Assembly: GCA_964595465.1 (NCBI GenBank)
Contig: CAZQQI010000004.1
Location: forward strand, 30,195-94,194
DNA length: 64,000 nucleotides
From: an uncultured Planctomycetales bacterium
GTDB taxonomy: Bacteria > Omnitrophota > Gorgyraeia > Zapsychrales > JANLHA01
Reading direction: 5' to 3'
Part shown: one piece after another, positions 33,001-57,000 of the stretch
How positions within the stretch are numbered: position 1 is the stretch's first letter
Layout: each line of letters starts with the position of its first letter
Notes under the pieces: model-generated
The model's database searches: none
Seen by the model: only the letters and a program-made list of their open reading frames with translations
Told to the model about the DNA's origin: nothing
Made by a program: the position numbers and the translations under genes

Positions 33001-36000
33001 GCGTCAGCGCAAATCAAAGGCCTTGCAAGCTTACATGGCCGGCATTCATTTTGATGAACATCTGGGAGAAGAAGAGATCGATCAGACCATTAAGCAATGG
33101 CTTGAATTGCTGCACCTTTATGAATATTGGTCCAAGGTCACCTTGTTCCATGAATCTCAGCTGGTTGAGGATGCTGTGAAAGGGACGTTGCCGGAGCAGT
33201 ATGAGCGTGAGAAAGATGGTACCCCGAAAGCCAAGGAGAATCCGAACATTGATGATGAAAACCTGAATGTTTATATTTTTCCGGGAGATCGCGAAAAGAT
33301 TCTGCATGCGTTTCAGATCCGCCGTTACTTGATCTCTATGATGTCTTCCGGCGGGCAGTCTCAGGATACCGGGGTCACGCTTGTGGATATGGCCTTGGCC
33401 TTTAAAGATAAAGGCCTGGCGGGATCTGTTGTTTTTAATATGCTGGCTAATAAATTTAACGATGCCTCTGCTATACCCACGGAAGAAAAGTTTTCTTGGG
33501 ATGCGGACTTCGGGCAGAGAAGAAAGCTCGCGCAGCTGATCTATCAAAAGACCGGTATTAAAAGTAATATTATCCATGATTGGACACCGTTCGGTGCTAA
33601 AGCAACGGCCATGACCGGGGCCGATATGACTCGGGATGCCACGGATTATGATTTTAATGTGATTATGGATCGCAATGCCTGTGTGCAACAGGTAGATAAT
33701 TTGATATTTGATGTTAAGCGTGCCATTACCGATCCCGATACGGTCATTATTGTAACCGGTCGTGGGACGACGAACACCTTTATGCCCATGGGGCAGGGGT
33801 CTCAGAATATTGAGGAAGGCCATCGTGCTTATGTGGTCGGCGTTATGGCGTTCGGCGGCTCCGCCGGGGAAGCCGTTGGAACAGGATGGGGGAATATCCT
33901 GCGCAACCTCTACTGGGAAACTCAGATGGCTGGACTGAATCCGGATTTCCCGTATCGTGCGTTGACCCCGGATGCCCGCCGTCTGCAGAAGGGCTTCTGG
34001 AATCGTCTGATGTCCAATACGTTTGGGATGATCGGGTTCAATCCCAACGCTGTCGGGATCAGTGAGGATATTTGGGCAGTTCAGCAACAGGCACATTCTA
34101 CGATCGCACTTGGCGGTATCCCGAAATTCCGCCGTTCTCGTGCGTTTTGGCATAAGATCCGTGAATCCTGGTCTCAGACAGACTGGCTCGCGGCCATGCC
34201 GCGCTGGGCCGGTGGTTATCCGCAGAAGATGGGCGACTGGATCATGCAGGAGATCATGGATATGGGGCCGTTGTCCTTGCAGGCCAAAGAGATCCGGGCG
34301 CATGGCGGCCGCTTCTTCCTTTATGCCAAGATCGGCCTTTTGAATATCCTCTTGACCGCGCCGGCTATCAAACTCGGCATTCTTCCTTTTGTCGGGATCA
34401 ATGTAATCCTTTGGTTGCTGGGTTTTATTTTTAACCAGGTTTTGACTATTAACGGTTTATTGGCTCATATGGAAGGGCACGGGTTCCATACTGTTCCCGC
34501 TGTGATCGGTGCTGTGGGTGGCGGAATCCTGAGCGCGGGGAATCCTGCCGGAGCCTTGATCGGTTTTGTTATAGGAGGGTATATTACTGCCATCGGGCAG
34601 TGGGTCAAGACCCGCGGGCGCGATATGTTGTTATTCGCGAATTTGATCGCCATCCATGTTCTTGGACAGACCATGCGTCAGACGCTGGAGTTTATCCCCT
34701 CTAAGGGTTCTGCCACCGATCACGAGACGGTGGACATGAGAATGATCATGACAAAGTCAGAAAAAGATTTTATCAATACGCGTACGATTGCCTTGATGGG
34801 GCTGATATTGTTCGGGTTGAATGTTTGGGCGCTGATGAGCTTGGATATGCTCAACGTTATTCTGCTTTTCCCGAGCCTGATGTTTAATTTGGGCCTGATT
34901 ATCGGGCCGTTTGTGGAGAAAACGAAAGAGGGGCAGGCTTGTCATCCGGTTCTGGAATTTATCGTTCAGTCATCAGGATGGGTTGTTGCAGGCGTGTTCT
35001 GCCTTCTCGCGACAGCGCTTTTCGGACTGGGCTTGGGTGGCGCGTATTTGGGATCAGCTCTTGTCGTTTATACCGGCTTGGTTCTTTTAGGTTGGGTATC
35101 GAAAAAGGATGTTCAAGAAAAGGGCTGGCGCTGGAACGGATATTCAGTGTTGTATTTTATCGGCTATCCTGCAATTGAATCTATAGATTGGATATTCTCA
35201 AAGATTCAGGGTCAAAGATCACGGAGACTATCTTCTGAATTTGCCCGGCATTTTGTGATTGGCTTATTTGTTCTTTTCTGGTTTTTTATCGTTCCCGTCC
35301 CGGGGGTCTTGATGCTGGAAGCAGGGGCTTATCGAATCATGATGACCCTGTCGTCGTTAATGAGTGATATTGCCACAGCCGTGGTTTTTGTGGTCATAAC
35401 CGCTGCGCTCGGATCTTTGGTGGCCTGGGCGTTACGCCATGATTTTGGTCTCCAGAGGATCAAATCTATGCTCCGCGAGAAGAAGGGAAGCCATATTCGG
35501 TTTTCTGCACTTTACCGCGAGTATTCTCGGCAGGATATGGATGAGTTGCATCATGCGAAGACCGCAGCAGCCTTTAACGATGCCGCCGAGTTTATTGAAC
35601 AGGATCATGAGCAGTTTGCTCAAGACGCTTTGGATTATATAGAAGGACTGTTAGGGGATCATTATAAGGTAAAAATTATTGAAGGGATTAATGCCGATAG
35701 AGTCCATTCTATGCCTGCGGAAAACGGCTACGACCTACGCGTCAGCGATGTCCAGATCCCCGAACAATACCAGCCGGCGGTGGAAGCATCCTTACGCAAA
35801 ATGCTTCAGGAAGGCGCGATCCTGATCAAGGCGGTTGACGCTGAAGGGCAAGAGATCACCATCCCCGCCGATCAGATCACCATCCGCTTCTCCAGTGTGC
35901 ACTTTATTATCGAACACAAAGAATCGCTGACCGATATTCGCGTTGAAATAAAAGAGGGCAAAGAAATCCTCCCGGAACAGCCCGCGGCTCTCGAAACCAA

Positions 36001-39000
36001 GCCCGCCGTTGTTGCAGCAAAGCCGCAAAAGATCGAGCCGCCCGCCGCCAAGGTCCGTAAGATCAATGCGAAATTACGCGATAATTATGATGTTCAGACC
36101 GGTCAGCGTATGTTCGCTGATAATGATAAAATGCAGGCCATGCGCGCGATGTTTCCCCAGGATGAGAACGGTGAACGCCGGGCTATTAAGACCGATATTT
36201 ATTCTATTTCGATTCGTGAGCTGCCCGAAGCCTTGAAAGCTTTCTTGTTCAAGGCGGCCGAAGACTGGGTGAATGTTTTCAAAAACACATCTGAGGAAGT
36301 TGAGTTCTTCCTGCCTGCTGAAAACACCTATCATATCAGTATTGCTGTGCCGCAGGACCTGGCCGCGGATCCGGACCATACCGGTGTCCTGGGGCATCCT
36401 GATGATGCGTTAACTTCTGAACAGATCATTGATGCTGCCCGTGCTCTGCGTGACATTGTGAGGCAGACAGGCATCATTACGCTGCGGCCGGTTGGTATCC
36501 GTATCGGCACAGACGGAGGCCTGGTCTTCGCTTTTGAATATGATGACCAACTGCAGATGCTTAAAGAAAAATCTATCGCAGCGGTACAGAAGGCCACTAA
36601 CGGTAAATATACCGGCCGCGCCAAGCCGCTGGTTCTGGTCACTATAGCGCGTACGTTGAGCAACCCCGTCGTTACAGCAGACCTTAAGACCGCGGTTGAA
36701 GCATTCGCCGGGACATATAGCACGGTTACTCTGCAGGACCTTGACCTGCCGGCACCTATTATTATTGATTCGGTCTATTTTTCTCATGAGACCCGCTGGA
36801 TGGATACGGAATTCGACTTGGAAGAAAAGTTACTGCTGGGTCAGGATAATCCGGACTTTGTTTCCCGTGTGGGGTGTGCCGCCGGAGCGCAGGGGTCAGA
36901 TCAGGCAGAAGAAACCGTTCAGCCTAAGAGGTCCTCATCACACAAAAAGGCTGAAGAACCGCAGAAGATATCCGAAGAGATCAGCAGATTACTCGGGACA
37001 TATAAGAATATTCCGGGCGTTGAGAAAGTGCGTAAAGCCTTGAATAATCCTTCGGAAAGACCGCTCGCCGAGCTGATCTTGCGAACAGCGCAGGCGCTTG
37101 AAGAAGATGGCGCCGTGATCAAGGCGTTTGAGGCGCGTCTTAAGGTGGCGTTAGATGAAGATGAGAGGACTGGCGAAGCACATAAGCGAACAGGCATTGA
37201 CGCGGATCTTATTGTCGTGTTCGGTGAAAATGACCAGAGCCGGGAATATCTGGTTGAAGTCAAGGGCACGCCGGCATCAGCGGCAGATTTCATTGAAACG
37301 TATTTTTATCAGCAACGCCGGACATTTGACCAGCCTGAAAGATATGAGGTTGTCTCCCGCAAATTAGAGTATGCCGGCGTGATCCTGGCTGTGCGCAAAG
37401 GCGACAACACCTATCCTGTGAGAGAGATCACAGCGATCCCGTCGCAGCCGGGATTTTTTATCTATCCGGTGGGAACCAAAAAACAGATCGCGGCCATGCA
37501 CCACCCCGCAGCAGAACGCACATTGGATTATGATGCTCCGGCCGTAAAGAAGATCGGTAAGGGATTATATGTGTCCTTAATGACCTTTGGTCTGCTGGCC
37601 CTTATCAGCCGTGTGTTCGATCTGGAAATTGTTTTCTACGTCAGCCTGTCTGTGTTGGGTGTGAGTCTGCTGGCTGCGGTGATCCTTCCTTATATATTCG
37701 TACGCAGAGGAGATGGTGCAGAAAGGGCGGATCGGCCTGCTACAGGAGATAACCGTGTTGATAGTACGCCAGAAAAGCCTGCTCAGTGCGTAGAAAGAAC
37801 AGTGCAATTACCGATGCGTGATTATGTGAAAACGAATGATGCCGATGAACAGGACGAGCCCGAACCTCAGCGCATTATCATCAAACGCTCTTGGACATTA
37901 TCCCAGGTCTGGTTCTGGGGCGCGATCGCGGTGACCCTTTTCGGCGCGTATAAAGGGGATCACAAGATCATTGATACCGGCTTCGGCTGTTTTATGATCT
38001 ACCTTGGCATTGTCATTGTGAAAAAGATCATGGCTGTTTTCATTTCGCGAAGAGACAGGCTTTTAGATAAGGCTGCCGCAGACCAAGGCTCAAAGATAGA
38101 AGACGAAGGTCAGGAGATGATGGGCACAAAGTATCCTGCCGTCTTCGGCGCTGAGGAGAAGGCGGACGAGATCTTTTTTGAGACCCTGGAAGAGGTCGGG
38201 GACATGTTAGAGATCATGCGGGTGCGTGTGCAGAAGGCTGAAGAGGTTTATGCCCGGATCGAGCAGACGAAGATAGAGGAAGAGGAGGATAAGGTTCTGG
38301 ATCTTGTTTCTTCTTTAATCGGGGCTGAGGAAGCTCACCGGGCGTTTAAGGATAAAATAAAGGTCCTGAGCAAAGAGATCCATGCCGGGGAATTGGAAGG
38401 ACATTCGGTTACTGCGGGAGTTGAGGATGCCCGCGATATGCGAAGCCATGCGATGTATGTTTTGAAGAATTCTTCAGCTGTTTTAAATAAGCTGGCGCAG
38501 AAGGCGCTGGGATTTATTGTTCAGGTTGAAGATAACCAGAGAGAGATCGCCCGGGCATTTTACGATCTTGATGGAAAAAACGGCAAAGATTTTGAGGAGC
38601 ATTACAGAGACACTAGAAGTTTTGCCGGGATAATAGAATTGCTGCATGAATTCATGAGGGCTAAAACACAACCTCGGAAAACGCTTGATGTGAGAACCGC
38701 CGGCACCGAACCGTCGCCTTCTTCATCGAACAATATCGCAGATGACCAGGCAGCAGGACTGCTTTCCTCCATTCAAGACGGCATGCTAAGAATAGAGTCA
38801 GCGATGAAAACTATTCGGTGGAAATATGAGCAGGCAGAAAAGAATACTGAGCAGGACTATGTTGAACGCTTAGCGCTGGCTTTAATGAGAGGGCAATGTG
38901 AGCTCAACGTTCTTAACCAGGCGCTGAAAAACGGCAAACATTATCTTCATGTGGCAGAGCAGAATAAACGGGATGAATTCGACGAAACAACAGCGCGCAC

Positions 39001-42000
39001 CTTAGCTCAGGTTAAACGAGTATGGGAACAAGCACGGCAGACGCTCATGGAGGCACAGCAAGAGGTAAGCAAGATCGCGATTAATGTACGGGGAATGATG
39101 TATGCGGTCAATGCTAAGTTGGCAGAAGTGCAGCGAGAATTGCAAAAATTGGCAGGCCAGCAAGCGTCTGATATGAATAAAAAACAGAGCCCGTCAGTCT
39201 TTTCTAAAGAGCTGGAAGAGATCATTACGGACATGTCCCGTGGTATTCGTGATGTCCGCAATGGTGTTGATATCCATGACGTAAACTCAAGTCAGGCCAG
39301 GGATTTAAGGCAGAGTGAGCATCGTTCCCGCTCCGGCATCGTCTCTATCTTGATGCTCACGATTTTATCCAGTATTTCTATCTTCGTGCTGTTTCCTTTA
39401 GCGATGGTTATTTTAATATTATTAGCAATTGCGGTTGTAGTGACATGTAATTATGGGACTAATAGGATTATTGAAGAAATTTACGAAATATCCCGGGATC
39501 TCCCGACAAGGACAAGAGGTGCGCGATTTAATGCCTGGTTCTCCCATTTATTCAAACGAGATCAAAGAAATCACGCTGCGTTTGTCCGCGTATTTCACAA
39601 TCTTATCCAGGAGATAGCCGATTGTGATGAACAACTTCAACGCGAACTTGAACGGTACCAAGATAATAATGAATTGTCCTATAGTGAGAAGGCCGCGCTA
39701 TACGATCAAAGCGTTGTTCTTCTGTGCAAGGCGCATCAGTCTATTTCCTTTATAAGAGAAAAAATTTATATTCGAAAAATGTATGAGAGAAAGAGAAGTA
39801 AACTGGGTGAGCTCAATCAGTTTGAAGTAAAGCTCTTAGTTTTGACAGAAAGTATAGATGCAAAAGAGCGGCTTGTGAAGAAATTGCTGGATACGACAAA
39901 GCTTGGAGAAAAGGGAATAGAGAGTTCAGACATGGATTCGGTTCTGGCTATTCTCACGAGCGCACAAGATTTTATCCTGCGCAATCAGAAAGAGGATGCG
40001 ATAAAAGTTTTGAGAACAGCTATAGATCTGGGGATGCATGATCCCAGAGTATATGTTATGTTGGGCGATGTTCTCTATGAAAGTTTAAAATTAAACGCGG
40101 CTATAGATACGTATCAAGCGGGTCTGGATAATGTCGATAAAACGCATGAATTTTATGACATAATCGCGCTTAGTTTCGCCAGTATTCTGGATGATCTGGG
40201 CCGTTTTGATGAAGCCGAGGATGTTATTAGAGAAGCGCTGTCAATAGACAGATACAACTCTGCCTTGTGGGTTTGTCATATAGCGATCTTGAAGCGCAAA
40301 GGCTGGTATGCTGAAGCTTTACTGCAATGTCATATAGCCGAAAAATTCATTAATCCTTCTGATTCAGCAGAGATTAAAGAGCTGATTTCCGAATTGACCG
40401 ATCTCTTAGACAGCGAAGAAGATTCTTTTTCACGTAGCAACCGCATCGATTTGACGGATGTGCAAAAAACAGACGGAGCGGCTGTTATTTTGCATTATAT
40501 AGATGAATTGCGTGAATATAAGTCTGTCGAAGAAGAATATTTGAGTGCCGTCAAAGAGAACATGAACCGCGAGAAATTGTCTGTCCTGACCGAGAATGTT
40601 GACGCGGTCAAAGTTGTTTATGGTACACAGGACCTGTTTTATGAGTTGGCGCTGGTCTTAGAACAGAAGGTCAATGCCTTCAACCGGACGGATCGGAAAA
40701 CCGGACAATTGTGGATCGTCATTAATCCTGATTTAAGGCCCATGGAAATTAAGCAGGCCATCGTTCATGAATTAGGCGCCATATTCGGGCTGCGGCATGA
40801 GGACAATTATGATCTGGAGCGATCATTGCTGAGTTCACAGTCCGAAAATCCCCTACATACAGCCCACTTAAATCGTATTCGTCGGCAGATCCATACGATC
40901 ATTCAGAAACGCAAGAACGGCGAGAGAGTCCTTAATCGTGATCCGTTTTCTTCTGGCCCAGCGGATGAGGAAGCACCTGCCGAATTGGTCTTCAAAGGCA
41001 ACTGCTGCGCCCTGCACCGTATTGTCGAAGGTGTGACCCTGCGGCTGGAAAACCCTGATATTCGGGACAGCGATCGTTATATTGGAAATGAGGAGGATCC
41101 TGACGCGGCGCGGCGGCGTGAGATCGCCAAGTTCAACCAGGTTGTCGAGTCCTGGAAGAATGTCCTGAACGAGACCAAACAGGCCTTTTCCGAAAATCGC
41201 GAAATTCAGGCGTTTGCAGACAGTGTGGTCTTCCTTATGGAGCTTGAGCAGATGGTTCGTCCTCTGATCGCTGAGCAGGACGCGGCAACAGGACGCCGTC
41301 TGACGGCGATCGGAGCTGCCGAGCAATCGATCCCTCAGCTGCACATGACAGCAAGGAATATGTTTGCAGATAATGCCCATATGCGGAATAAGGCGTTAGA
41401 GTTTATAGACGGGTTATCCGCCATTCTGGTAGACCTCATGCATCCCGAATATTTACGCGCTATGAATGATCTTGATGATCTTACGGATCAGCCTGATGTT
41501 GTACTTCTGCTGCCGGAGATCTCTCCTCTGCAGCTGTTAATGTACGCTCAAAAGTATAATCTGGCGGCAATTGTTCCGGAGAAAGGAACCGCCACGGCCC
41601 ATGCCGCGATTCTTGCCCGCGCTTTCGGCCTGGTCACGCTCACCGGCGCGTATTTGGATGGGGATATCCATAAAGGGTCTGCCTATCAGCTGCTGAAGGG
41701 TGAAGAACCTGTGGTCATCAATGTCCATGGCGGTAAGATGAGAGTTTTCCCCACGCAGAAATCTTTAGACAAATACCGGTATTATCACCGCCGCATTGAA
41801 CAAACCCGCAAGAAAGCGCAGGCCGAGATTGCAGAGACGCTCAAAACAGCTGATGGTGTAGCTATGCAGCTTGCCGTGAACAACGATGATCACCGCCACA
41901 CCCGGCAGACCTGCAGTATGATCGGACAGGCGGATCTTTACGGGATCGGGCTGGACCGTTTTGAATTTCTGATCATGGAATTAGCTATGGGAAATTGGAA

Positions 42001-45000
42001 AGATATTGATCTGTTCAGCCGTGAGATCTTGTCGATACTTCAGAGGATGCAGACAACGGCCAATTCATATGGCAGCCCGCTTCAGTATACAGTCCGCACT
42101 CCTGATCGGGACCGCCGCAATGTGAAATTACCGGGCATCGATGAGAGCAGTGATTATGAGGGATCACGGTGGTATTACCGGACATCTATCGGCAGGCAGG
42201 TTCTGGAGGCCGCGTTGTCGGCTATTATGGATGCCCAGCAGACGTACCATACAGACTGCACAGCGGCCGGCCAGAAAACCATGGTCACGTCCATTACGAC
42301 CTTTCCGCTGATGAATTCAATTGAGGATGCCCGGGGCGTAAGGCGCATCCTGGATGACATGCGCAAGCGTTATCCGGCGCAGACCGCCCTGCAGAACCTC
42401 GGGTTTATGGTTGAGAATCCGGAAGCGGTCGAGGCGATGCGCGAAATCAGTGAGATTTTAGGAGATGTCCGGGTTATTAATCTGGGCACGAATGATCTGG
42501 AGGCGACAGTTACTCACAGAAATCGGGAATACGGCCGGGGTACACGAAAGCCGCTCTTTAATCGCCGTGTTCTCGAATGGATCATTCAGGCGGCCGCGAC
42601 CGCGCATGAAATGAATGTTCCGCTTTGCCTTTGCGGGGAACTGGCCAATTATGATGAAATGACGCTAATCTTGCTTCACCTGCGCCGGCAGGGATACAAC
42701 ATTTATGGCAGTATTAATCCGGGCCAGGTGGCCTGGCAGAAGCACTTTATCCGGCAGGTCACATACAATGACCTTGATCGGGTTGCTTACCTTTTGGGTC
42801 AGCGGAGTTTAACTGATGAACGGTTCAGCAAACAGATCCGCCTACGTGTTTCGGAAGTTTTAAGCCGGATAAATTTTGATATTCAAAATGACCGTAATAA
42901 TCATCATGGGCAACACGGGCATAGACGGAGAGGTACGGTCTCTGCCCCTGTCCTTTTTGCTTTATTCGCTTTTTCAGCAGTTGTGGTTCTGCCGCTGACT
43001 GTGGCGATACTGCTGGCACTGGGTCTGATGATCGTTGTCAGGACCGCCTATGCGATCAATAAGGTGGCGGCTTCGTTTTATCGCGAATCTTACGATCACC
43101 GCCTTGATGTGGCAGAGGAGCAGAATATCCCGGATCAGCGGCGGCTTACGCATCCGCTTATCCCCGGCGTCCGCTATGCCGATCATTTTGAGTTTCTCCA
43201 AACCGCCCGTCAGTGTCTGAAAAGTATCGAAGATTGTAATATTCAGCTTTATGATGCAATGACAGTATATCAAAGAGAAGAGAAGCTAAGTCGGGATGAA
43301 GAAGAGGATCTCTATTGCCGCATGAATAATCTTCTTGATTCGGCATATGACCATATTATTGCTTTACAGAAAGAACTCCGTATTAGACAGGTGGTTGATC
43401 AGGAAGAGCCTTTTCTGAATGAGCTCAGGAAACTTGAGCTGGATGTCTCGGCCTGGGAAGACATCATTGATGATAAAAACCGCGTCTTGAATACATTGTT
43501 AGATATTCCGGTGTTGAAACCAGCAGAAACAAGCGGGCGGGATGATCTGTATGATGATCAGAATATCCAGGGTGTCCTTGCACAAGCAGGATACTTGATC
43601 GGGTGCGGTCAAATAGAGGGCGCCATCGGCATTTTGTCTACAGCTATTGATCAGGGCCTGCGTGATCCCAGAGTGTATATCACTTTGGGTAATCTTTTTT
43701 ATCAGAGATTTGAAGTTGATGATGCCGTGCATACATATCGGCAGGCGTTGTTTAATGCTGACCAGGATAGTGAATTTTATTATATGATTGTGATCGGTTT
43801 CAGTAGTATCCTGGAGGATCTTGGACGGCTTGACGAGGCTGAGATCGTTATCTGTAGAACGCTGCAAAATCTGAAACGTAATTCTCTGATATGGCTGTCC
43901 TATATTTCTATTCTGCAGCAAAAGGGATGGTATGCCGAAGCTCTGCTGCAGAGTACAATTGCTCTCAAGTTCGTCAGCCCTGTTTATTATCCGGGGATCA
44001 AATCGACGATCTCCGAATTAGCCGATTTGTTAGATGAGAGAGGGCATGGTCAGGATGAAGAAGATCGTTCTGCCGATGGGCGGAAGGTGGAAGACGTTGT
44101 GAGCCTGCTTAAGTCTAAGTGGCTGTATCCGGCTGAGAGAAGGGGCGTAGACGCGGTTTTTGATGTTTATGTCTCTTTGGCGCTGGAGTTGAACAAGGGT
44201 CTGCGTTTTCCGAACCGGATTTTGGTAGTCGATGATCTGGAATGCGGTGCCTGCTGGTATGAGCAGTCCGGTCGGAGAATATTGGTCCTGGATCGGGGCG
44301 TGGCAAATGGTGAGCTGGATCAGGTCTTCCGTCACAGCCTTGAGGGCGAACAGCGGACGCACCGCTGGGTCATTGAGCATGAATTGATCGCCCTGCAGGG
44401 CGGCCTGCGGCATGATCAGGTTAAACAGCTTCAGACGATTTTGGCTGTTTTGCGTTGGTTTAAGAAATATCCTGATGATACTATGCCGGTCGGAACTGTT
44501 CCGGATAATGCCGCAAAAAGAGGGATCCGTATTTCTTTGCCGGAGGTTTATGCGGATTATACTGGTCCGTTGCTGTTGGCACAGATCGGCCAAGACGTTA
44601 TTCTGGCCGCTCCTGCAGATTTTCAACAGGTCCTGCAGGCCGCGGGAGCGCGCAAGCAGACAGCGATCCCGTTTTTGGATCCGGTTAGGCGGAAAATCAT
44701 ACTTCGAACACTGAAGATGCGTGTGCTCAGCGCAGAAGCCGCGGCATATGTCTTGCCTCAACCGCATTATCCTGCGCTGCACCGGATTACAGCAGGAATG
44801 CCCATTCAGCTTCTGGCCCCCGTTCAAGAACGTGACCGTTTGTCAGGGCGGCTCGGTGGTGAAGTGAAAGATTTCGCGGCCGACTCAACTGTTCCACCGG
44901 TCAGGAATACCGGGCATGATTCTTATAACCCGGGACCCGAGTGGGATGAAAAGATATACAGAGCCGTTTTCGCTGTTTCTCTGACAGCCTGTCTGGCTGT

Positions 45001-48000
45001 GGGTCTGGTGTTTCTGACAGGGCAGGCGATTTTACCGGCAGGAGTTTTTGCCGGTATCATTCTGGCATATACAGCGGTGAAGGCCTGGCAGAAACATAGT
45101 TATGTTTGGCGTATTCGACGGATCCGAAAGAGCGCCATGCATGCCCGCACCAAAGAAGTATATAGTTTTACCTCGCTGCTGAACCGCGATGTTCTTAAAC
45201 GGGAACTTACAGCAGACGATATAACGAACTTGCTTTCTGTACAGGGACGAAGTTTGCGTATCGCTTCTATCTCCCGTGAGATCGCGCATGAGATCGGGCT
45301 GAACCCGAGGAGAACGGAATTCATTGCCTTGACTTATAATTTAAGTGACATTCCTTTTCGCAGCCTTTGTTTATCACAGGAGCGTGAATTGGGGCGGCGT
45401 ATTGCGCACAGCGGATTCGATCTTAAAGAACAAAATATTCGATTGCTGCGCGATGCCGGGATATGGCTCAGTCGTCAGGATATTGATGATAATCTGAATT
45501 TGGATATCGATGGAGATGTCAGCGTCCTGAGTGACGAGGCCAGGCTGGTGCTGGCTGTGCTGAGTGTCCTGGAAGCGGAAGAGGACATTCTGCTGGGTTT
45601 GCGTTTGGGGATTATCCGCCCGGCGGACATCCCGCTGCCGCTGCAGCAGAAGATGAACACGGTCTTTAATGATCCGGACCTGGAACAGTGTCAGCTGAAA
45701 ATCTATCAATATGTTCTGCAGGACTTTCAAGGTCTCTCACGGCGTATTGTCCGGCACATATTATCGGCTCGACAGCATCACTTTTCCCGGGGGTCTGTAG
45801 ACCAAATGCTGGCACAGGCACGTTTCATAAAGAAAAAGTTTCGTGAGACATTTATTATTCCGGCCTTATTTAACAGCCCACAGGCCAAGAAAAACATACC
45901 AAAATTATATGCCTACCGTGTGCGTCTGGTCAATGTTCTGTTTCAGCGCTGGGCCCTGGATTATCCGCATAAGCATCCTGCCCTTATGAATGATGTGGAA
46001 AAGAATGAAGGGATGCGCTGGGTTTTGTGGCAGATGATAAAAATCCCGCCGCGCGCATTGAAAGGATTTGCTATTACGGCTCAACCCATTTCAGATGGTG
46101 AAAAGATCATCAGTGAACGCGGGCTTCTTGATCTCGAAAGTGAAATAACACAGGGAAGGCCTTCTTCCATACGCGATGTGTGGCAGACAGCAAGCCAGAT
46201 GAACCCTGGCCTCGAGCAAAAGATCGTTCAGGCTTTGTTGGAACGTATTGCCAGGTTAAATGGAAGCAGCGAAGAATTGGGGCAGTTGTTGGCGCAGTTG
46301 CAAGAAAATTCTATGATGAGAGATGCGGATGCTGAAGAGGATCAATCCACTCGGCTCACTGCCAGAGGCGGGACGATTATCTTTGCGCTGATGGTGTTCT
46401 CTGAGGCCGGCCAGTGGCTGCCGTCTCTGGATGTGTTCAAATATAGAGCGATCATTACAGCAGCATGTGCGTTCATGGTTTTGATATATGTAACGAAAAT
46501 CCTGGTTCAAGTCAGAGCCATAGTCCACAAAAACAGAACGATACAACAAGGAGGGGCATCATGGATTCCTTATGGGAGAAACTCGAAGTTCAACGCACGG
46601 TCCGTTCGGACATCGGCACCTTCGTCTCGGTCAGCTATCCCGGCTGGGCCAGCGACTACGCCGTTCTCTTCCAGGATGACGGACGGGTCCGCGGCCGCAC
46701 CAGTGAAGGCGGATGGGTCGAACTCAGTCATACCGCGGCCGACGTATTTCGCCGCAAATGGCAGCGGTTCGATCGATCAACTGGGGGCCGGTAAAGACCA
46801 TTCTGTCCGCGCTCCCCCAGCGTTCAAAGCAAAACACTATACCCGCCGACCGGCAGTATTTTACAGTCTTTCTTTATTCTTGATTCCGAGTTTTCATGTT
46901 CCCTTAGCAATATCAGCGAAGTTTTTTCCGCTTGCTGATGTGATGGTTATCGCATTTTCTCTTATGCTTATCGCCAGCCTGTTCTGGCGTATCGCGTTTA
47001 ATGATCGTCCCGGCAGATTTCTTCACGATCACGGGGTCATGCTGAAACGTGAACGCCGCAGGCAGAACGCGCACGAGATCAATATCAGGCTGGAGAAGAT
47101 TCGCGAGCTTATGCGTGCCGAAGATTATGAGACAGCCGTTAGCGCGTTGGGAAAAATGGTCTTTGATGAGTGTCCAGATAACGCGCGGCCGTATCTTATG
47201 GCAGCTGAATGCTGGCGCTGCCTTGGTGAAAAAGATAATGCTGTCGAAGCCTTGAATGTTGGGTTGGAGAGCATGACTCCGCAGGGCGCCGGCTACGGCA
47301 TGCTGCTTTTCTGTTTGGGTGATCTGCTGCGCGATCAGGGACGCTTAGATGAAGCCGTGGAAAAGTATGCTGAGGCGGATAAGTATTTCTGGCAAAACGG
47401 AAAATTAGCCCTCGCGGCGGCGCGTGTAGAGGTTCAGCTAAAAAATTATGATATTGCGGAAATTCATTACGAACTGGCGGTGAACCGGTTATCCGGGGCA
47501 TTAAAAGAAACAGCCAAACAAGAGAAGAGAACGCTTAGGAAAAAAATAGAGCGAGAAAAACAGAGTATTGTTAAAGAAAAACAAAACCGCAAATATCAGC
47601 AGTTGCTGAGCCGCGCGCAGAAGATTAAAAGATATCATCCGGAAAAGGCGATCCAATTGCTATTTTCTGCGATGGGCGTTAAGCCCAAAGGTACGGAAGC
47701 ATACGTTAGAGCCGCCGAGATCTACGTCGAGCATAAGCGACATGATCGCGCCCTTGAGCTTCTGAAAGACGGGCTGCAGACGTTTCCGCAAGGCAAGCCG
47801 AGCCACAACAAGATCATGGTCCTGATGGCCCGGATATTTACCGCTCAATATTATGACCAGCGTGAACAAGGGTATGACGGCGATCCGCAGGTCGTTATTC
47901 AAGCCTTGGAAGTGGCGCTGAGCAAAGATTTTTATAATTTCGAATTGCATATGGACCTTATCGGAATGCTGTATGAAGCAGAAGAGTATGAACGCGCGCA

Positions 48001-51000
48001 GCAGGAATTATGTTCGATCCAAGGTTGGTGTAATGCCTCGGAAGAGAAAGAACGCTGGCAGCACGCCTTCAGTGAGATCCGCGGAAAGATCGGCCGCAGT
48101 AGAAATTCCAGCGAGGGGGATTATTCCGCTGACGGTGTGATCACCACGCGCAAAGACGCTGACGCCGAGATCAGGCGTGCGCTTGAGCTGCCGGAAAATC
48201 AAGATCACAAAGTCTTAGGAGAAGATCATGAGCCGGTCAGATTAGCGCGCAGATTTTTCTTCTGGGACAACACCCAGAAGAACTATATGTTTCTATCGGC
48301 TCTGATCGCTAAAGAGTTAAACAAGGTGCGCATTGAAGCCCATGTCCTTTCCGGACTAAAGGTGAGGGGGGTGTGGCAGTACAAGCAAGAAGGTGATCAA
48401 CGGGTGCTGAAGATCTTTATACGTGAAGGTGAGAAGCGGGGACGGGTTATTGTCCATGAAGTTGCAGCGGCCCTAAGCGCGCAAAAGCAGGGGTTTGCGA
48501 CGGCACACGCAACAAACAAAAATATTGAAGAATTATATATGCTGTTTGTTAGAGGGGCTGGTCAGATTGAACATGAGGTGGTTGGTCCACCGAAATTCCT
48601 GAGAACCGGCAAAGATTTTGCGGCAGATAAGACGAAAGGTGCCGGCCGCACAATACCGGCGATTTTCCTGCGCGTTAACCCCAGCGGCAAGAGCAGACGA
48701 TTCACCCCGGAAGATGTCCCGAATTATAGCTATCATAAAGATAACCGCCGTATCGTATTCCCGGAACCGATGCCGTCTGTGCATGATCCCCGTCAGGCCG
48801 TCATGCTGAAGGGAGAGGGCTGGTTTTCGGTGCTGATGACGTGCGGGGAGGCGCTGCGCGATCCGCGCCCTTGCTGTGGAGGGCTGAAGTATGAAGAAGT
48901 TGAAAAAGAGCGCTGCAAGGAGCGTGAAGGCGAACTGATCGACGAGGTTAAGAACCTGGCGGCCAATGAGGATCGGACCTGTGCGTTATGGAATACATAT
49001 GCCCGGGGCGGGGCCTGTGTTCTTTGCTCGGATCAAAGCCGCAATAAGGACGATATTCTTAGGGAATGGGTCTATGCGATGATGTTTTTAGAGCTTTTGG
49101 GGTGGAAGTATATTGTGCTGCCGGATCTGAACACGACGCAGGAGGACATGGACTTCATTAATGATATTGCCTTTGGAGTGGCCGTAAGAAACTATCTGCA
49201 GAAAGAGCAGCGGCTATCTGAAGATGATCGTCGTGAATTGACAGCTATTTTGGAGAGTTCAGCACTTGACCGATGGACCCGCTTGACAGCAGAACAGCGG
49301 TTCCGGATCGGCATGGCCCTTCCGGCAGCGGGCGGCAAGGCGCATTCCGGCGGGGTGCCGGTCTATGATTGGGATCTCTACGGAGAAGGATTTGTCCCGC
49401 AAATTGAATGGATGCTGGCTGAGCGAAGACGGGAAGGCCCCGTAAAGGTTTTGGTTTACGGCACCAACGGGAAGGCCCGTTCGATTATACGTACATTGAT
49501 CGACAAGTTTTCTCCCAAGGAGGTCATCCTTGTGGGCTGGGGGGATCAACAGAATGGGATTTATTACAACGCGGGGCTTGACCGCCATGACCTTCTACTG
49601 ATGGTTCGAGCTTTTAAAGAGCACGCCGGAGACATGAGTTTGGCACAGTATCGAAGTAAGATGGTTTTTTATTCGACACTTGGGGGGAAAGCGTTCCTTA
49701 AGCAGTTTGCCGACTTGGTTATTTTGGCTGAAGAGGCGAGGGAAATATTTCAGGGAGACTTATCGGATTATACTGGAAAGCAGTTTGTTGAAGGGGCCGC
49801 GAGGATTTTAGGCAGGTCTCAGCGTGACCGACTATCCGAAGCCAGCCTCAGCTATTGTTCATCGGTTTGGGTGCGGGGAGGGATCCATGTTGCTTTCCGT
49901 GAACAACTCCTGCATACTCTCATTCCGTCATTGAGTAAAAACTTTGACGCTAAGATGTGGCGTATGCATCTGATCGCGGATATTTTCTCGACTGCAGAAG
50001 CATTGCAGGGAGAATTACGTCAAACATGCTGGAAAGACCAGAATTTTAAACCCTGGCAGATCGCGCGGAGACTTGCCAAGGCGATCCGTGAAACCGAACA
50101 GATGGGCTTTTCTAGCGGAGAAGCGGTTAAGGAAGATGTGGATTTTGTGCGCCGCATGGATCAAGACAGCCCCTGGAAACAGCGTATGGGAGGCTTAACC
50201 GGTTTTTCTGAGGACGCCTACGATAAGGTTTTTTATGGCCGGGAAGGATTGCCCAAAGCGAAAGATCACGAGGGAGAGCAGGATCCGTTACAGGAAGCGA
50301 CGGAATATCTTTTTAAAGATGATCCCAGATGGCAAAGGGTCGGGGCGTATCATGCCAGCCGTTTGTCACAGCGCATAAATCCGGCGCAATATGATATTCA
50401 CTGGCTGATCATCCTTTCCCGTCTGCAGACGCTCCTGGCTGACCGCCAGGGAGAAGCACGCGCGCGCTCTTTGGCCGCAAAAGCCCTGGGAGTATTGTAC
50501 CGTCCTTTAGCAGATGCCGGCATCGATACGTCGACGTTAGACGGCATCATTAAAATCCTTCGGGGAGTTCTTGACAGCCGGCATATAGAAGTGGTTTTGA
50601 TGGCCGTATGGGCGATCGCAACAGCCGGGATCGATCCGGCGGGCTTGCTGAAAGAGACGGCGAACCAAAAACAAAATCTTCACCAGCAGATCAAAGAGGC
50701 TGAAGAGGCCATCGCTGCCGCCCCTGACCCCACTATGTATTATACTGCCGCAGCCTCTTTGCGCTACGAACGAGCGACGATCTATTTTCTCATGGATCGG
50801 AAGATCGAGGCGATCGAAGATTTTAAAAAAGCTCAGCAGCACTACGAACATGCTCAGTATGAAGGCGGCCAGCTGCCATTTCGTTTGATCTTGCAGCTGG
50901 CCCGCTGTTATGAGTGGCTGGCCGTAGAACAAGACAGGAATGAGACGGTGGCCGGAGTATCGGATGAAGCCATGGAGCATGCCGTTGAACAATATCTTAA

Positions 51001-54000
51001 TCTGGCAGATTACAATTATATGGCCAAGTTGATGGAGAAGACCCCGAGCATTTTGAATACCCATTTTGAAAGCTATCGTCTGTGGGCCCTGGAGGCGCTT
51101 TTAAATGTGTACCGCCCGTTTTGTCAGCATGCCAACACTATTTTGGCTGATGAATTGAATCAGGAACTCCATGCTGAAAAATGGAAAGAGCTTATTCCCC
51201 TGTCTCTGGGTTCCCCTCCGTCAGGGGCAGGCGGATTTGAGGAGTTTGTTCAGAGCTTGAATCCTGTAATCTTTGAACTGGAGTGCGCGTTTACCAATTA
51301 TTATGTTCCGTATTTGCCGCTGTTGTTTTTCTTTACCAAGGATATTATTCCGGTTGATTCGTTCCCTGAGGCCCATAGGGTCATTAAAAATATTCTGATC
51401 CACCGTCCCCTGACTGATCAGGAAGGACATCCCTTGAATCCAGAAACCGTGCGTTCTCGGCTCAGAAATGGAGGGCATTATCTTAAAAGGTTGAAGAATC
51501 GGCATGAGCGGAAGGTCCTGGAAGATCTTCTTGAGCGCTTGAATGTTATTGATACACGCAGGATGGGGAAAAGGGCGATGCCCCAGGACAGTGATGACCG
51601 CAAACCGGCAGAAGAGGGTCCGCCATTCTCAGGTCATGCCTATCCGGCATCCGTTGAAGATGATGCAGGGCGGTTAAGTTTGCGGCCGGCATCATCTGAG
51701 GAACGGGAACGTCTTATGGTCCTTCTAGGCGGTGAACATGCTTTTGTCGAGAGAGGGGCGGTGCCGGATGATATTGAAATGTTTATTGTGGATCATTTGA
51801 AGAAGGTTGCTGTGGCGAGCGGGCATAAGCTTTATATCAATGCCAGGATTTTATCAGCGGATGATGAGGATCTTCGGCCGTTTTTCCAGGGGCATGAATT
51901 TTTCCATCTGGTATATCCGCATCTTTCGGAAGATATGGTGCAGGGATATTCGTTGTTTTATTTGCTGGCTAATGAATTACTATACGATCATTTGAACTAT
52001 CTTGAGACGAATAAACACGGCATTAAAGGGAACTCATCATGGCTTAGAATTCTTCGACCCCATATTCATATCGCTCCCCGGGAATCTTTGACGAGCAGGG
52101 AGCCGGTTAAGCTTGACGAAATTGGATTATGCATTCCTGCTCATTGGGACGACCGCGTCGTTTTGATGTCCCTGAGTTTTCTGATGGCGCATAATTTCAA
52201 AAGAGAAACAGCTTTGATCCTGCAATTGATAGAGGAAGGATCGATTTTATGGGATGGTTTCGACAAAAAGACTATACGCAAACATTATGATCCGCTGACC
52301 GGACGGGTATATATCCTTTTGCCTAAGCTCCGCAGGGCTAGTACGTCCGAGCAGATGATTTCCTTAATGGGGAGCTTTATTGCGGTCATTGGTCAAGAGG
52401 CCTATCAGCAGGAACATAATCCTCAGGGCATGACCAAGTGTTTGGAGAGCGAAGGGAGTTTGGACGTTGCGGGATTAGAAGTGAATCGTCTGACACAAGA
52501 TCGTCCCTTGTTCGGTCCGCGGGAGGGCGTCTGGTGGGAGACGGAAGGCGCGTTCAATCCAACGGCGTTTTTGGTCGGAAAAACTGTGTATATGATCTAT
52601 CGGGCGCAGGGAGATGATCATCGTTCGCGTTTCGGATTGGCCCTCGCTGAGTTAGATGATCAGAACACTTTGGATGTAGACAATATCATCCGTTTTTCTG
52701 AACCAATCCTCTCTCCGCTAGAGGGTAATTTCGATACGCTGGCCTGTGAAGACCCTCGTGTTGATATTGTGGATGATCAGGTGGTGATCTCATATGCCGG
52801 TGTCAAGCTGGCGCCGCGGGAACATCTCTGGTTTGAGATGCATTTTGATAAAGACCCCGCCGGGGCGACCCTGCGTTTGCTTAATCTGATCAAAGACAAG
52901 CCGGACGATGCCGTTATCGCTCAGGCCGGCATGGCGGTCATGTCTTTGGAGATGTTTTTGCGAAAAACCGAAGAGCGTCTTGCGGGCTGTGAGGAAGCAG
53001 TATTTGAGTGGGAGCGGTTTCTGGTTAATGAGGAACGGGATACGGAATACAATAAGGATGATCCCGTCTTTCGTGACGGCCAGGGCCGGTTATGGATGCT
53101 GGACCGCCCTGTCCGCACCGATGAGCATGATCTGCCGCGTCACTGTATCCGCTTTCGCCGTTCCGACGGGGATATCCACGGCCCGTGGCGCAAACTCCCG
53201 ATCTACATCGCGCCGAGGGATAAGAATGTTTTTGGCGGGCCGTATCAGGAAGGGTGGGTCGGAGCCGGGACAAATCTGGTTGAACTATCCTGCGGTCTGC
53301 TGATGTTTTATCATTCGGCTATTTTGGATCCCAAGATGGAGCACCCCGGTCATCGCTCATATTATGGACATATGATGATCCTGGACAAGTATGATCCGAC
53401 CCGTATCCTCTGGCGCTCAGAGGAGCCGATTATTATACCGGAGATGGATTGGGAAAAAGACGGCCTCAAAGGCGATTTGGATCATGTTTTTCCTGAAGGA
53501 TTGATCAAACTCAGTGAAGACGAGCGATCTGATGGGGGTCATCATGTCCGCCTTCTCATGCTGTACGGAGCGAAAGATTTTTATTCCGCCGCTGCGGAGG
53601 TCGAATTTGACATTGATGGGCCAAATATGTTCAAGGATCAGAGGAGTGCGAAAAAGACCAATCAGCGGTCAGGCAAGACTCGTATCGAGGTTCCCTTTGC
53701 GCTGGTCGCCCTCTCAGTTGTCGCAGGGGTATTCGTAGGAATCTATGCTTATATAGCAAAAGATGTCAATATTTTTGCCGGTTTCGCTGCGGCCTTGATC
53801 GGCATTGTCGCTTTTCTGGGAGGCTTGATCCCATTATGGCTGGCAGTATGGATATTACGGAAAATCCCGGCCTTTCTGCAAAAACGCCGTATGAGAAAAG
53901 ATTGGGAGCAGAAACAGTACCAGGCGAAGAAACCGAAAGTTGTTGCCCGGCTCAAGCAATTACAGAAAAAAGTCGATCGTTATGTGCGCCGGGATCATCT

Positions 54001-57000
54001 TCAGGCAGCGGTTGAAAAGTTAGTGGAACAATATCAGGATGAGGATGTCGAGAGATTGGCAGCACAGATTTTTGATGATTTTGCTCAGGTTATCTTGCGT
54101 CGTCAGGATGAGCAGATGCTTAGGAAAGCTCAGCAAGAAAATGAACGGCGGGCGTTTAAGCAGTTTCAGCAGGGCATGGACGATCTGCGTAAGCAAATTA
54201 AAGATGGAAAAAAGAAAATCCTGGAAGGACAGCCGCTGCTTGATCGTATTTCCCAGCTGCTGGAACCTGTAGCGCAAAATCCGCAGGCCCGAAAATCAGC
54301 TGATGAGCTGAGGGGTGAGATTCGTGCTGCCCGGGAGGAAAAGAAGGTTGCCGCGGCGCAGCAGATCAAAGTCATTGGTAATCAGCGACTCGACACATTG
54401 GAGGCTCGCCTCAGCAAGGCTATAGCAGATCGTTTGTCTGCGGCGCGAGGGAGAACAGACAGGGAACAGGAACGGTTCAGAGAAAAATTATCGCCTGATA
54501 AGATCTTTTCGATGTGTTCAAATGGTTTGTATGTATTAGAGGAGGCGATAGAACAGGCGTCAACTGAAAAAGAAGCGCGCAGTGCATTAAAAGCCATTAA
54601 GCGAATGGGTCCGGCGATCAATAGCCTGATCGAAGCAAATCAAGCTGATGCTGATGTGTTGGAAAATTACGCCGATGTTCTTAAAGAGACTGCGCGGGAA
54701 AAAATCGCATCGTTGAAGGGTAATAATCCGGATCACGGGAAAAATCGAAGCCGGAATTCGGTTGGTCGTCACGGGCAACGCAAAGCTTTTGTCGACAGCG
54801 GGTTCCTGTTTGGAAATATTTTTTCTGGAGTCATCTTATTCAATCTTCTGGGGATTCAGCATCTGCTGGAATTCATGTCCAGATGGCATCTAGTAAAGTG
54901 GAGAGCTTTCCCCAAAAGCTTTCTGGGCGCTTGCGCCCTCCTGCTCGGGGGATTGATCGCCATCACGGTGGTTTACGCTGTAAGCCAGTTTCTGTTTTAT
55001 GTGGTGCAAGGACTGGCCAATATTGCACGAGGGATCATACATTGGATGCAGAAATTAGCCCGCGGAGAACGGTTTTTGCGCGATGCTCTATTGTGTGAAG
55101 GATTTGCGTCTGCGGTTTCTATTTTGTTTATCGCGGCGGCAGGGGGGTTGGTTTTCGTTCACTTTGATTCTGGTATTTTGCTGATGATAATTGCAGCGGG
55201 AACTCTTCGTGTGCTGAGAAACCGCATTCATAGGACAAGAAAACAGCGCAAGACTCACCGACAAAAACCGTCTTCGGACACGTCTTCGCAAAAGAAAAAA
55301 GCCCGTAAAAATATTCGGATGCTGTTGATCGGTTTGGCGTTTATCCAGATCCAGGCTGATGGTCCAACAGCTGTTCAGTATGTCGGTGTATTGCTTTCAG
55401 CAGCGGCTCTGTTTTCATTAGTCTTTTTCTGGGCCATGCAGCCGCGTGACGGTCCGGGCAAGAAAGACAGCGTTCCCTCCGCCGGATCGCGTCGATCCTG
55501 GAACCAGCGGCTGATTGCGTGGTGTCGTGACCCTCATCATGTCAGCCGGCCCCGCCTGACAAAGGTTCAAAATGTATCCCGCCATTTCGAAGGGTTCCGT
55601 TATAAGACCACCCAAAATATGTACTTTATGCCGGTAAAGTTTTCGGATGGTGAACGAGGATTTTACGTAATTAAAGACGGTCGCTTTCTGGCTAGATCAG
55701 AGCTGACCTGGAATGGTCGTTTGCGTACGGTAGATGTAAAAATGATTCTCCGTCAAAGCAGCCGGCGGAAAAAAGTTTCTTCCCGTTATATTCCTGCGGA
55801 TCCAGCCATGCCGTTAAATTTCAGCTTACGCTGGCAAGGAAGTTATGTCGATATGACTATAGCGGGGCGGGAACTGCCTTATGAATGGCGTGTGGTAGAC
55901 TTTCCCATTGGTCAGAAGATCGACACCGATCTGGGGATGCAGATCAAGCGGATTTCTGCTGAAGAACTGGAAATCGCCTGGTCCGGTATTTCTCCCCAAA
56001 AAATAAAAATGTCTGCTGCTTCCAGGGCTGAATATGATCCGGAAATTGTTCCGGTTGCAGCTCCGGAAGAGAAGAGTGCGGGATGGCAGGAGAATTGTGC
56101 TTTACGGTCATTACATCAAATTGTCCCGGATGCTTTGCAGAATAGTGTAATAGAGGCTGGCCAAAATAGTGCAGAGGATTTTGAATATCTGAAGATTTCA
56201 GATTCTGTAAAACCGGCATTATCAGCAGCAAAATTTCAGGAAATATGGGAACTGGCTCCCAAAAAAGCGCAATATAAGCTTTATGCTAAACGGGTCGGGA
56301 CATTGGCAGAGACAGACCGGATGCTCTGGCATATCTCAGCTATGCAGGGGTCAGACGAATACCATTCTCTTTATGGCTTGCTTAAACGTGGGATTATCCG
56401 GGAAAAGGATCTTATGGCCGGGGCTGCTTCTTTAGAACGGCTGCAGCCGGAAGAGGTCGTACATGCCCGGGTCAGCGAATTTTATCGCATACATAGTGAG
56501 TTTATCCGCTTATTGCCGGAATACAAGAAGGCCCGCAGGCAGAAACAGGCCGAATATCTTGAGGACATCCAGAACCAGTTTTCTTCTTATGCCGATTATA
56601 TTTCCCCCTACATTCAGGAGATCCGGTCCCGCAATGGAACTACTCAAGATGCGCTGGACCGGCTGGAGTGTTTAGATCCCGATCGCTTGAAAACGCTGGC
56701 GCGGCAATGGGGGAAACGTTTGTCTGCAATGACACCGTACTTTGAACAGGCCTTTGCCCGTCTTGACCATTTTCATCTTGATCGTTTGAATGATATCGCA
56801 GTTAACTTGACGAAGCTGCGGCTTAAGGCCCAGCTGCTGCGTCTGCAGAATGAATTGCGCGGGGATGCGTATGGACGCCAGGGGCCGATCTATCTTCTCT
56901 TTAATAGTGTGATCAAATCCTATACCCGCATTGCGCATGAACACATATGGCGCCGTTCCCGGCGGCAGGGAGATCTTCAGGGACAGAATCTGACCATGGT

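Follow-up and report, generated by a model that had tools for sequence, protein, structure and literature searches.

A Probable Small-Protein Gene Nested Out of Frame between Two Modules of an Omnitrophota-Type Giant Gene

A Giant Reading Frame Holding Two Small ORFs

The 64,000-nucleotide (nt) stretch of DNA analyzed here, called the window (positions 30,195 to 94,194 of contig CAZQQI010000004.1, assembly GCA_964595465.1, from an uncultured Planctomycetales bacterium), is spanned by a single giant open reading frame (ORF), inside which two small ORFs, A and B, lie on the same strand. The subject of this study is ORF B, probably an independent small-protein gene nested out of frame between two modules of the giant gene. 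The giant frame starts at nt 2 and contains no stop codon, with 1,552 and 1,021 in the other two forward frames. We refer to its register as idx1 and to that of ORFs A and B, which lies one base 5' of it, as idx0; the small frame is -1 relative to the giant frame and the giant frame is +1 relative to the small gene.

The translation of the giant frame matched the Pfam domains Glucan_synthase (1,3-beta), PEP-utilizers, GH130, TPR, and HEAT, and it holds 73 strongly hydrophobic 19-residue segments that are concentrated at module boundaries. Judged on ORF length, transmembrane segments, and domain make-up, the window is a fragment of an Omnitrophota-type giant gene. Two reports describe the giant genes of Candidatus Omnitrophota as multi-transmembrane, tens of kilobases long, and carrying mixed enzyme domains (bioRxiv 10.1101/2023.11.21.568195; 10.64898/2026.06.07.730766). 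The ORF of the window resembles these "Archaeovorin"-type genes in its length (>64 kb) and many transmembrane segments, in its sugar-metabolism and phosphotransferase domains, and in its HEAT/TPR scaffolding. They typically carry a SecA-DEAD domain, which was not seen in this 64-kb fragment: no SecA DEAD helicase was among the Pfam matches for nt 2-60001, but the gene exceeds the window and such domains are reported to be highly divergent. An alternative genetic code or an assembly error as the source of the long frame was rejected, because the frame lacks stops of any kind and the same architecture recurs in independent assemblies.

ORF B had been picked out in an earlier note, made from the letters alone, as a nested ORF in the alternative frame that is paralogous to ORF A, has the same start context, and lies at another module junction. 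The nesting was confirmed: B is a complete ORF of 77 amino acids (aa) that begins with ATG within the host coding sequence, on the same strand and in another frame, and the giant frame runs through it without a stop (Table 1). The common start context was found as well. AAGGAGG, a Shine-Dalgarno (SD) sequence, occurs at three sites on the forward strand of the 64 kb, and two of them precede the start codons of A and B by exactly 6 nt (AAGGAGG-N6-ATG at 174-189 and 46548-46563). When all alternative-frame ORFs behind any GGAGG plus start in the window were listed, A had 95 codons and B 77, and every other had at most 43. The junction position also held, since both ORFs lie between giant-frame hydrophobic helices (for A, segments at 2-58 before and 554-610 after) and a TPR module follows B, with TPR matches from about nt 47090.

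The earlier note had judged the arrangement hard to explain by chance, and codon usage agrees with this. A codon-usage log-likelihood (LLR) was trained on the giant frame and computed for 2,129 windows of 150 nt. Register idx0 outscored the giant frame only at 181-480 and 46471-46770, which singles out A and B; two single windows, at 19321 and 39451, were flagged too, though in favor of the third frame, idx2. The idx0 LLR over A and B was +0.1 to +0.3, as compared with -0.88±0.41 elsewhere in that register, and the giant-frame LLR was -0.03 to -0.31 (B: -0.1 to -0.31), as compared with +0.32±0.14 elsewhere.

The 60-nt start region of B has a minimum free energy (MFE) of -5.6 kcal/mol, against a window background of -12.8±4.2, and an A fraction of 0.50, against 0.26; the structure z-score of 46500-46620 is +0.67. 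The spacer between SD and ATG is GGCATC and holds no X_XXY_YYZ heptamer. The stretch that follows B, 46795-46915, had been described as AT-rich and promoter-like, yet open in the giant frame and coding for hydrophobic helices. The open frame and its hydrophobic helices were confirmed, but the promoter-like character was not supported: no sigma-70-like promoter consensus was found in 46795-46915, three such sites elsewhere in 46000-47400 were not above shuffle expectation, and the T-richness is of the kind that codons for hydrophobic residues produce. An Rfam scan of 45800-47400 gave no matches.

Table 1: Coordinates of the features discussed, in window numbering
Feature	Coordinates	Strand	Remarks
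Nested gene B (putative)	46561..46794	+	77 aa + TAA; ATG start; register -1 to giant frame
SD of gene B, AAGGAGG	46548..46554	+	6 nt before ATG; leader A-rich, weakly structured
Giant-frame read-through of B (WIPYGRNSKF...DQLGAG)	46562..46792	+	77 codons; S/A/P/R/G-rich; stop-free; without coding signature
Giant-frame transmembrane-like helix IITAACAFMVLIYVTKILV	46451..46507	+	End of upstream module
Giant-frame hydrophobic helices	46856..46987	+	Open the downstream TPR module
Nested ORF A	187..474	+	95 aa + TAG; same register as B
SD of ORF A, AAGGAGG	174..180	+	6 nt before ATG
Host giant ORF	2..64000	+	At least 21,333 codons; 0 stops; both ends run off the window

The Family of ORF B

An exhaustive phmmer search with B over 1.84 billion representative proteins gave 31 matches at E≤1e-3, about 22 of which are proteins of 71-105 aa that align from Met to end. 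The family consensus reads L.ITRV....G.FV.A.YPGW..EY.F.I..DG.VKGRTS.G.W.ELS...A.IIR.K, and the end-to-end alignment includes W29, G45, and W52 of B. A hidden Markov model (HMM) built from the 22 other members, with B excluded, recovered B at E 1.4e-21 (72 bits) and matched nowhere else in the window. The family has no counterpart among the Pfam and NCBIfam models. When B was modeled with AlphaFold2 (AF2) from its single sequence, the predicted local distance difference test score (pLDDT) was 87.5, with five strands and a C-terminal helix. On these comparisons B belongs, over its full length, to an unnamed family of small Omnitrophota proteins, and it is predicted to be a conserved, soluble 77-aa protein with a confident fold. 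The protein-level conservation in the alternative frame that the earlier note had claimed thus stands for B; the part of that claim which rested on the resemblance of A to B does not, as described below.

Membership of B in the bacterial SH3-like repeat proteins (RVRGRLxxGGWISL motif; P0001, P0011, P0017, P0022) was considered and rejected. These proteins match only residues ~33-60 of B, as many short stretches, and Pfam SH3_3 and SH3_5 match them weakly and B not at all.

Recurrence of the Nested Arrangement

A degenerate DNA pattern was derived from the family motif, checked locally, and run against species-representative genomes and metagenome contigs, from which loci of at most 15 kb each were fetched; the pattern catches about half of the known members. 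The scan yielded 24 loci from genomes and 9 from metagenomes; as one was a duplicate contig, 32 distinct loci remained. A family member was present in every scanned locus (E 1e-17 to 4e-32). Of the 24 genomes, 13 carry the label Candidatus Omnitrophota and 11 are labeled as bins of uncultured Planctomycetales/Planctomycetia. In each of the 32 loci the small gene has an ATG start preceded by a GGAGG-like site, and it contains no stop in the +1 register and 2-12 stops in the +2 register. The giant (+1) frame was open to both ends of the fetched DNA in nearly all 32 loci, up to 7.6 kb on one side, and in the three loci where it was not, it remained open for at least 2 kb beyond the gene. On three contigs (L008, L011, and L013) the family member is likewise enclosed by a +1-register frame that reaches both contig ends without a stop, and there the gene callers began the big gene just after the small one; L011 is a contig fragment of a Candidatus Omnitrophica metagenome-assembled genome whose called giant product of 9,482 aa runs off the contig.

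Two loci are stand-alone exceptions to the embedding in a long +1 ORF. In one (L001, 10001-10225), a free-standing family member lies 83 nt downstream of the stop codon that ends a gene of 6,803 aa or more. The other (L002, 4333-5401) carries three tandem free-standing copies downstream of an ORF with a length of at least 1,376 aa, and one of these copies is very diverged (hhalign probability 90%). The free-standing copies also have fewer +1 stops than expected (P 0.007-0.02).

An unbiased scan of 325 kb of giant-gene DNA, made up of the window plus every related locus, sought ORFs of 55 or more codons that lie on the same strand in an alternative frame and have an SD-like site and an LLR above that of the giant frame. 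It returned all family members but one, every one of them in register -1, plus ORF A and one weak candidate. The member that was narrowly missed (L021) has two frames that score about equally, and the weak candidate (L041, 4613-4792), which has a TTG start, is likely a false positive. Family members aside, ORF A alone among the ORFs flagged in the 325 kb combined a strong SD with an ATG start.

One further contig deserves separate mention. In L012 (JGI 3300045909, 12.6 kb), the family member is surrounded by numerous short genes on the same strand that contain fragments of PFK, HEAT, and phosphorylase, and the contig looks like a giant gene broken by indel errors. It has two +1-register stops (9446 and 9452) just 5' of the likely true start of the nested gene at 9502.

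Selection on the Two Frames

Each small gene was recoded synonymously, with codons drawn according to their usage in the respective giant gene. The recoding predicts 3-6 stops in the +1 register where none were observed (P 0.0003-0.02 per locus), and no stop depletion was seen in the +2 register. As a control, the +1 stops of the giant genes themselves had observed/expected ratios of 0.90-1.11, and 80-codon windows free of +1 stops numbered 19 of 1,063 in the window and 0 in the other loci. In 23 of 24 loci the codon LLR of the small frame exceeded that of the giant frame. None of the 24 small genes has a second codon that begins with A; an A at that place would make TGA in the giant frame.

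The per-frame comparison of substitutions, which the earlier note had suggested for the two small ORFs, was carried out on three close orthologue pairs of the family and favors the small frame. Differences at small-frame codon positions 1/2/3 were 4/10/38, 12/4/33, and 16/8/30, and identity in the three pairs was 77-84% for the small protein versus 49-59% for the giant-frame peptide. The alignable flanks have the normal giant-frame pattern, with differences most frequent at position 3 and least frequent at position 2. Together these patterns show that the small frame is the constrained one and that purifying selection acts there, the giant frame over the small gene being constrained only to stay open, as a stop-free spacer. 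That the giant frame is kept open without other constraint implies that the segment is translated through.

Two further observations concern the surroundings of the nested genes. In two locus pairs (L020 versus L026 and L023 versus L043) the nested proteins are 84% identical, whereas the giant-frame flanks are unrelated or more diverged (21-52% identity); in the first pair homology reaches only ~40 codons upstream of the nested gene. No other part of these loci is as well conserved as the nested gene, and modules therefore seem to have been shuffled around it. In loci L016-L048, SSSP and SSP (often SSSP[VLI]) are enriched in the giant frame within ±300 nt of the nested gene: 14 of 40 SSSP lie there as compared with 4.5 expected (P 7e-5), and 30 of 94 SSP as compared with 10.6 (P 7e-8). 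The window itself contains no SSSP. These motifs may be processing sites that bracket the spacer.

The Initiation Region across the Family

For 34 nested genes, the region from -40 to +20 had a mean MFE of -8.1 kcal/mol, as compared with -10.6 kcal/mol for the rest of the locus (Wilcoxon p 0.001), and the A fraction of the leader was 0.39 versus 0.29 (p 6e-6). Downstream of the stop of the small gene, the giant frame showed no conserved combination of SD and start codon, and re-initiation of the giant frame past that stop was dropped for lack of such a signal. Nor was a conserved slippery sequence found at a fixed distance from the SD, as programmed frameshifting would have it; the SD-ATG spacers differ in every locus.

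ORF A

ORF A shares the start and length features of the B family (a GGAGG-type SD, ATG, 95 aa). The GC content by codon position at A fits idx0 (position 3, 0.68-0.72), and A contains no giant-frame stops where synonymous recoding expects 3.3 (P 0.003). When it was modeled alone with AF2, the pLDDT was 51, with strands and helix in the same order as in B.

Paralogy of A and B, as stated in the earlier note, was tested in several ways and was never significant (p about 0.02-0.05). BLASTP gave no matches between A and B and phmmer gave E 3-5; A did not match the family HMM built from 22 members without B (E 8.9). The best local alignment of the two, LIFRDQERVYQRNGIKGTWDEI against VLFQDDGRVRGRTSEGGWVEL, has a Smith-Waterman score of 38, which was reached by 1.7% of shuffles. 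With hhalign, P was 0.011-0.039; against 59 family members A scored 15.5, and 5% of shuffled A sequences did equally well. The peptides that the giant frame encodes over the A and B segments showed no similarity either (p 0.43). A DNA repeat behind the resemblance of A and B was also rejected, as the only repeat near A begins ~55 nt past its stop.

Recurrence of the motif at other junctions of the same gene, the absence of which the note had named as refuting its reading, was not supported within the window. No further family copies were found there, and only two junctions hold a nested ORF; the module following A is duplicated at 19.6 kb, and the linker upstream of the duplicate is of the ordinary E/P/A/K-rich kind and contains no nested ORF. 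Because the unbiased scan of 325 kb flagged it, we regard ORF A as an object of the same kind as B, probably a second nested gene that is very diverged from the B family or unrelated to it in sequence.

Other Features of the Giant Gene

A tract of ~660 nt is essentially 100% identical between two giant-gene modules (531-1190 and 19629-20288). It begins ~55 nt past the stop of ORF A and lies within an older duplication (1359-2340 versus 20439-21420) that is 65-75% identical, which suggests a recent gene conversion or an assembly collapse. A 1,3-beta-glucan synthase domain (FKS-type, PF02364), of a family best known from eukaryotes, lies at about 14387-15910, and at 60032-60625 a 99-nt unit, equivalent to 33 aa of the giant frame, is repeated in tandem ~5 times with 68-93% identity. 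On the minus strand, one frame has 480 stops as compared with 933 and 1,075 in the others, and contains ORFs of up to 480 codons (for example 29545-30984 and 33014-34303). Such a bias probably reflects the codon-phase effect that is common opposite long genes.

Discussion

The reading that we consider likely is that B is an independent small-protein gene lying wholly inside an inter-module spacer, out of frame, in an Omnitrophota-type giant gene. Ribosomes on the giant mRNA would read through the segment and produce an essentially arbitrary linker between two membrane-anchored modules, and other ribosomes would start internally at the SD and ATG and make the small protein from the same mRNA. 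Synthesis of the small protein would then be coupled in place and time to that of the giant protein, as that of ComS is to srfAB, and the small protein would most likely work with the giant protein as a partner, an assembly factor, or a regulator. As for its origin, adjoining genes most likely became a single frame by fusion across a small cistron that needed to remain separate, which is consistent with the free-standing copies beside giant genes in some relatives.

Several points weigh against this reading. Independent initiation at the nested ATG is inferred from sequence alone. For B the recoding test was not significant (P 0.29), because the amino-acid sequence of B rarely allows +1 stops. 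No close relatives of the window were found in genome, metagenome, and protein collections, whether by protein, by peptide pattern, or by exact product look-up, and for this reason the substitution pattern of B itself could not be measured. Finally, the frequency of stand-alone copies is poorly estimated, because the pattern catches about half of the members and the loci extend to at most 15 kb.

Four other explanations were weighed. The nested ORF could act as a leader cistron only, loading ribosomes within a huge mRNA, for instance so that the mRNA stays unfolded or re-initiation downstream is fed, and its peptide would then have no function. The internal ribosome-binding site is indeed strong and accessible, and the ORF lies at a module boundary followed by helices that resemble a new N-terminus. 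A leader, however, is not expected to be conserved from end to end across a phylum with a confident predicted fold, and the giant frame has no conserved SD and start codon after the stop of the small gene at which re-initiation could take place. We regard the leader-only explanation as unlikely, although a leader role could exist besides the function of the protein.

It also seems quite unlikely that the small frame is entered by a -1 slip near the internal SD, in the manner of dnaX, so that the "small protein" would be the C-terminal domain of a truncated giant product, with the small-frame stop as terminator. An internal SD a few nt upstream stimulates frameshifting in dnaX and prfB, and here too an SD lies just upstream and the register is always -1; in ORF A, the SD-ATG spacer even holds an A-run, GCAAAATG. 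Such a slip is hard to reconcile with the lack of a conserved slippery sequence and with spacers that vary from locus to locus. In many loci a small-frame stop lies only 4-7 codons before the ATG, the N-termini of the family align at Met, the free-standing copies (L001 and L002) have intergenic DNA on both sides, and the start regions resemble true initiation sites.

That B is the fossil of a gene fusion, a small gene swallowed when two giant genes fused and no longer expressed, is very improbable. Stand-alone copies beside giant genes in relatives would fit such a history, as would the diverged look of ORF A and its poor AF2 model. A fossil would decay first in its own frame, and we saw no relatives with a disrupted small frame; on the contrary, the ORF is intact with ATG and SD in 32 of 32 loci, codon usage favors the small frame in 23 of 24, and purifying selection is ongoing on the small frame, with none on the giant-frame peptide. 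A long ORF arising by chance in a GC-rich, low-complexity linker, or an assembly error, has practically no weight: idx0 does contain other open stretches of 158, 132, and 123 codons and the A/B similarity is not significant, but homologues are found at E down to ~1e-30 in independent assemblies, all 32 loci share the architecture, and both the recoding test and the substitution test speak against it.

Taking B, then, as a small-protein gene in its own right, we compared it with known nested genes. The lambda-type phage spanins include Rz1, a complete gene within Rz in another frame, and both products are made. There the genes are small, both frames are functional and constrained, and the two proteins act jointly in lysis; the host gene here exceeds 64 kb, and its overlapped stretch is constrained only against stops. 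In Bacillus subtilis, comS lies on the same strand and out of frame inside srfAB, also a very large multi-module gene, and is co-transcribed with it, so that its synthesis is tied to expression of the host gene (PMC12915044, PMC11230408). ComS, however, has 46 aa, is restricted to Bacillus, and overlaps an enzymatic region of SrfAB that is itself conserved, whereas the members of the B family have 71-105 aa and a confident predicted fold and are conserved across a phylum, and here the constraint lies on the nested frame, the host frame being a stop-free inter-module spacer without constraint. GndA, within gnd of Escherichia coli, and other nested small ORFs are likewise same-strand, frameshifted ORFs within a coding sequence that have homologues in several species (PMC11230408). 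GndA has 36 aa and a TTG start and is thought to have been overprinted on a tolerant region of an older gene; in contrast, the gene of the B family looks older and better conserved, and free-standing copies of it exist.

More tentatively, and with real doubt, the giant genes of Omnitrophota might be operons turned into polyproteins, in which one small cistron has been kept separate by dual coding. The nested protein would keep its own SD and ATG, and the giant frame would thread through as a disposable and possibly excised spacer. The nested protein would then be an obligatory partner made in cis, such as a chaperone, a docking subunit, or a regulator, and the nested gene, being better conserved than its flanks, could serve as a recombination handle for module shuffling.

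The architecture is a conserved and apparently undescribed feature of Omnitrophota giant genes. No description of nested genes in giant genes was found in full-text literature searches or in term searches of two giant-gene papers, and in text searches of these papers (bioRxiv 10.1101/2023.11.21.568195; 10.64898/2026.06.07.730766) no mention of nested ORFs or SD sequences was found and "internal", where present, is used in other senses. A nested protein of ~80 aa, predicted to be folded, occurs in 32 of 32 loci in one register. To our knowledge, the host genes are the longest known in bacteria, and same-strand nested genes that are both conserved and functional are very rare among cellular organisms, the few characterized examples including comS and gndA. 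The usual picture of overprinting is reversed here, in that constraint lies on the nested gene, apparently the older partner, and the host frame does no more than avoid stops.

The finding also points to a gap in annotation, as gene callers drop the small gene or cut the giant gene at that place (L008, L011, and L013). For the biology of these bacteria, the nested genes offer an entry point to the growth of giant genes, possibly by fusion across former gene boundaries. They bear on whether giant genes are expressed as one chain or also from internal starts, and on whether the giant proteins may need dedicated small partners.

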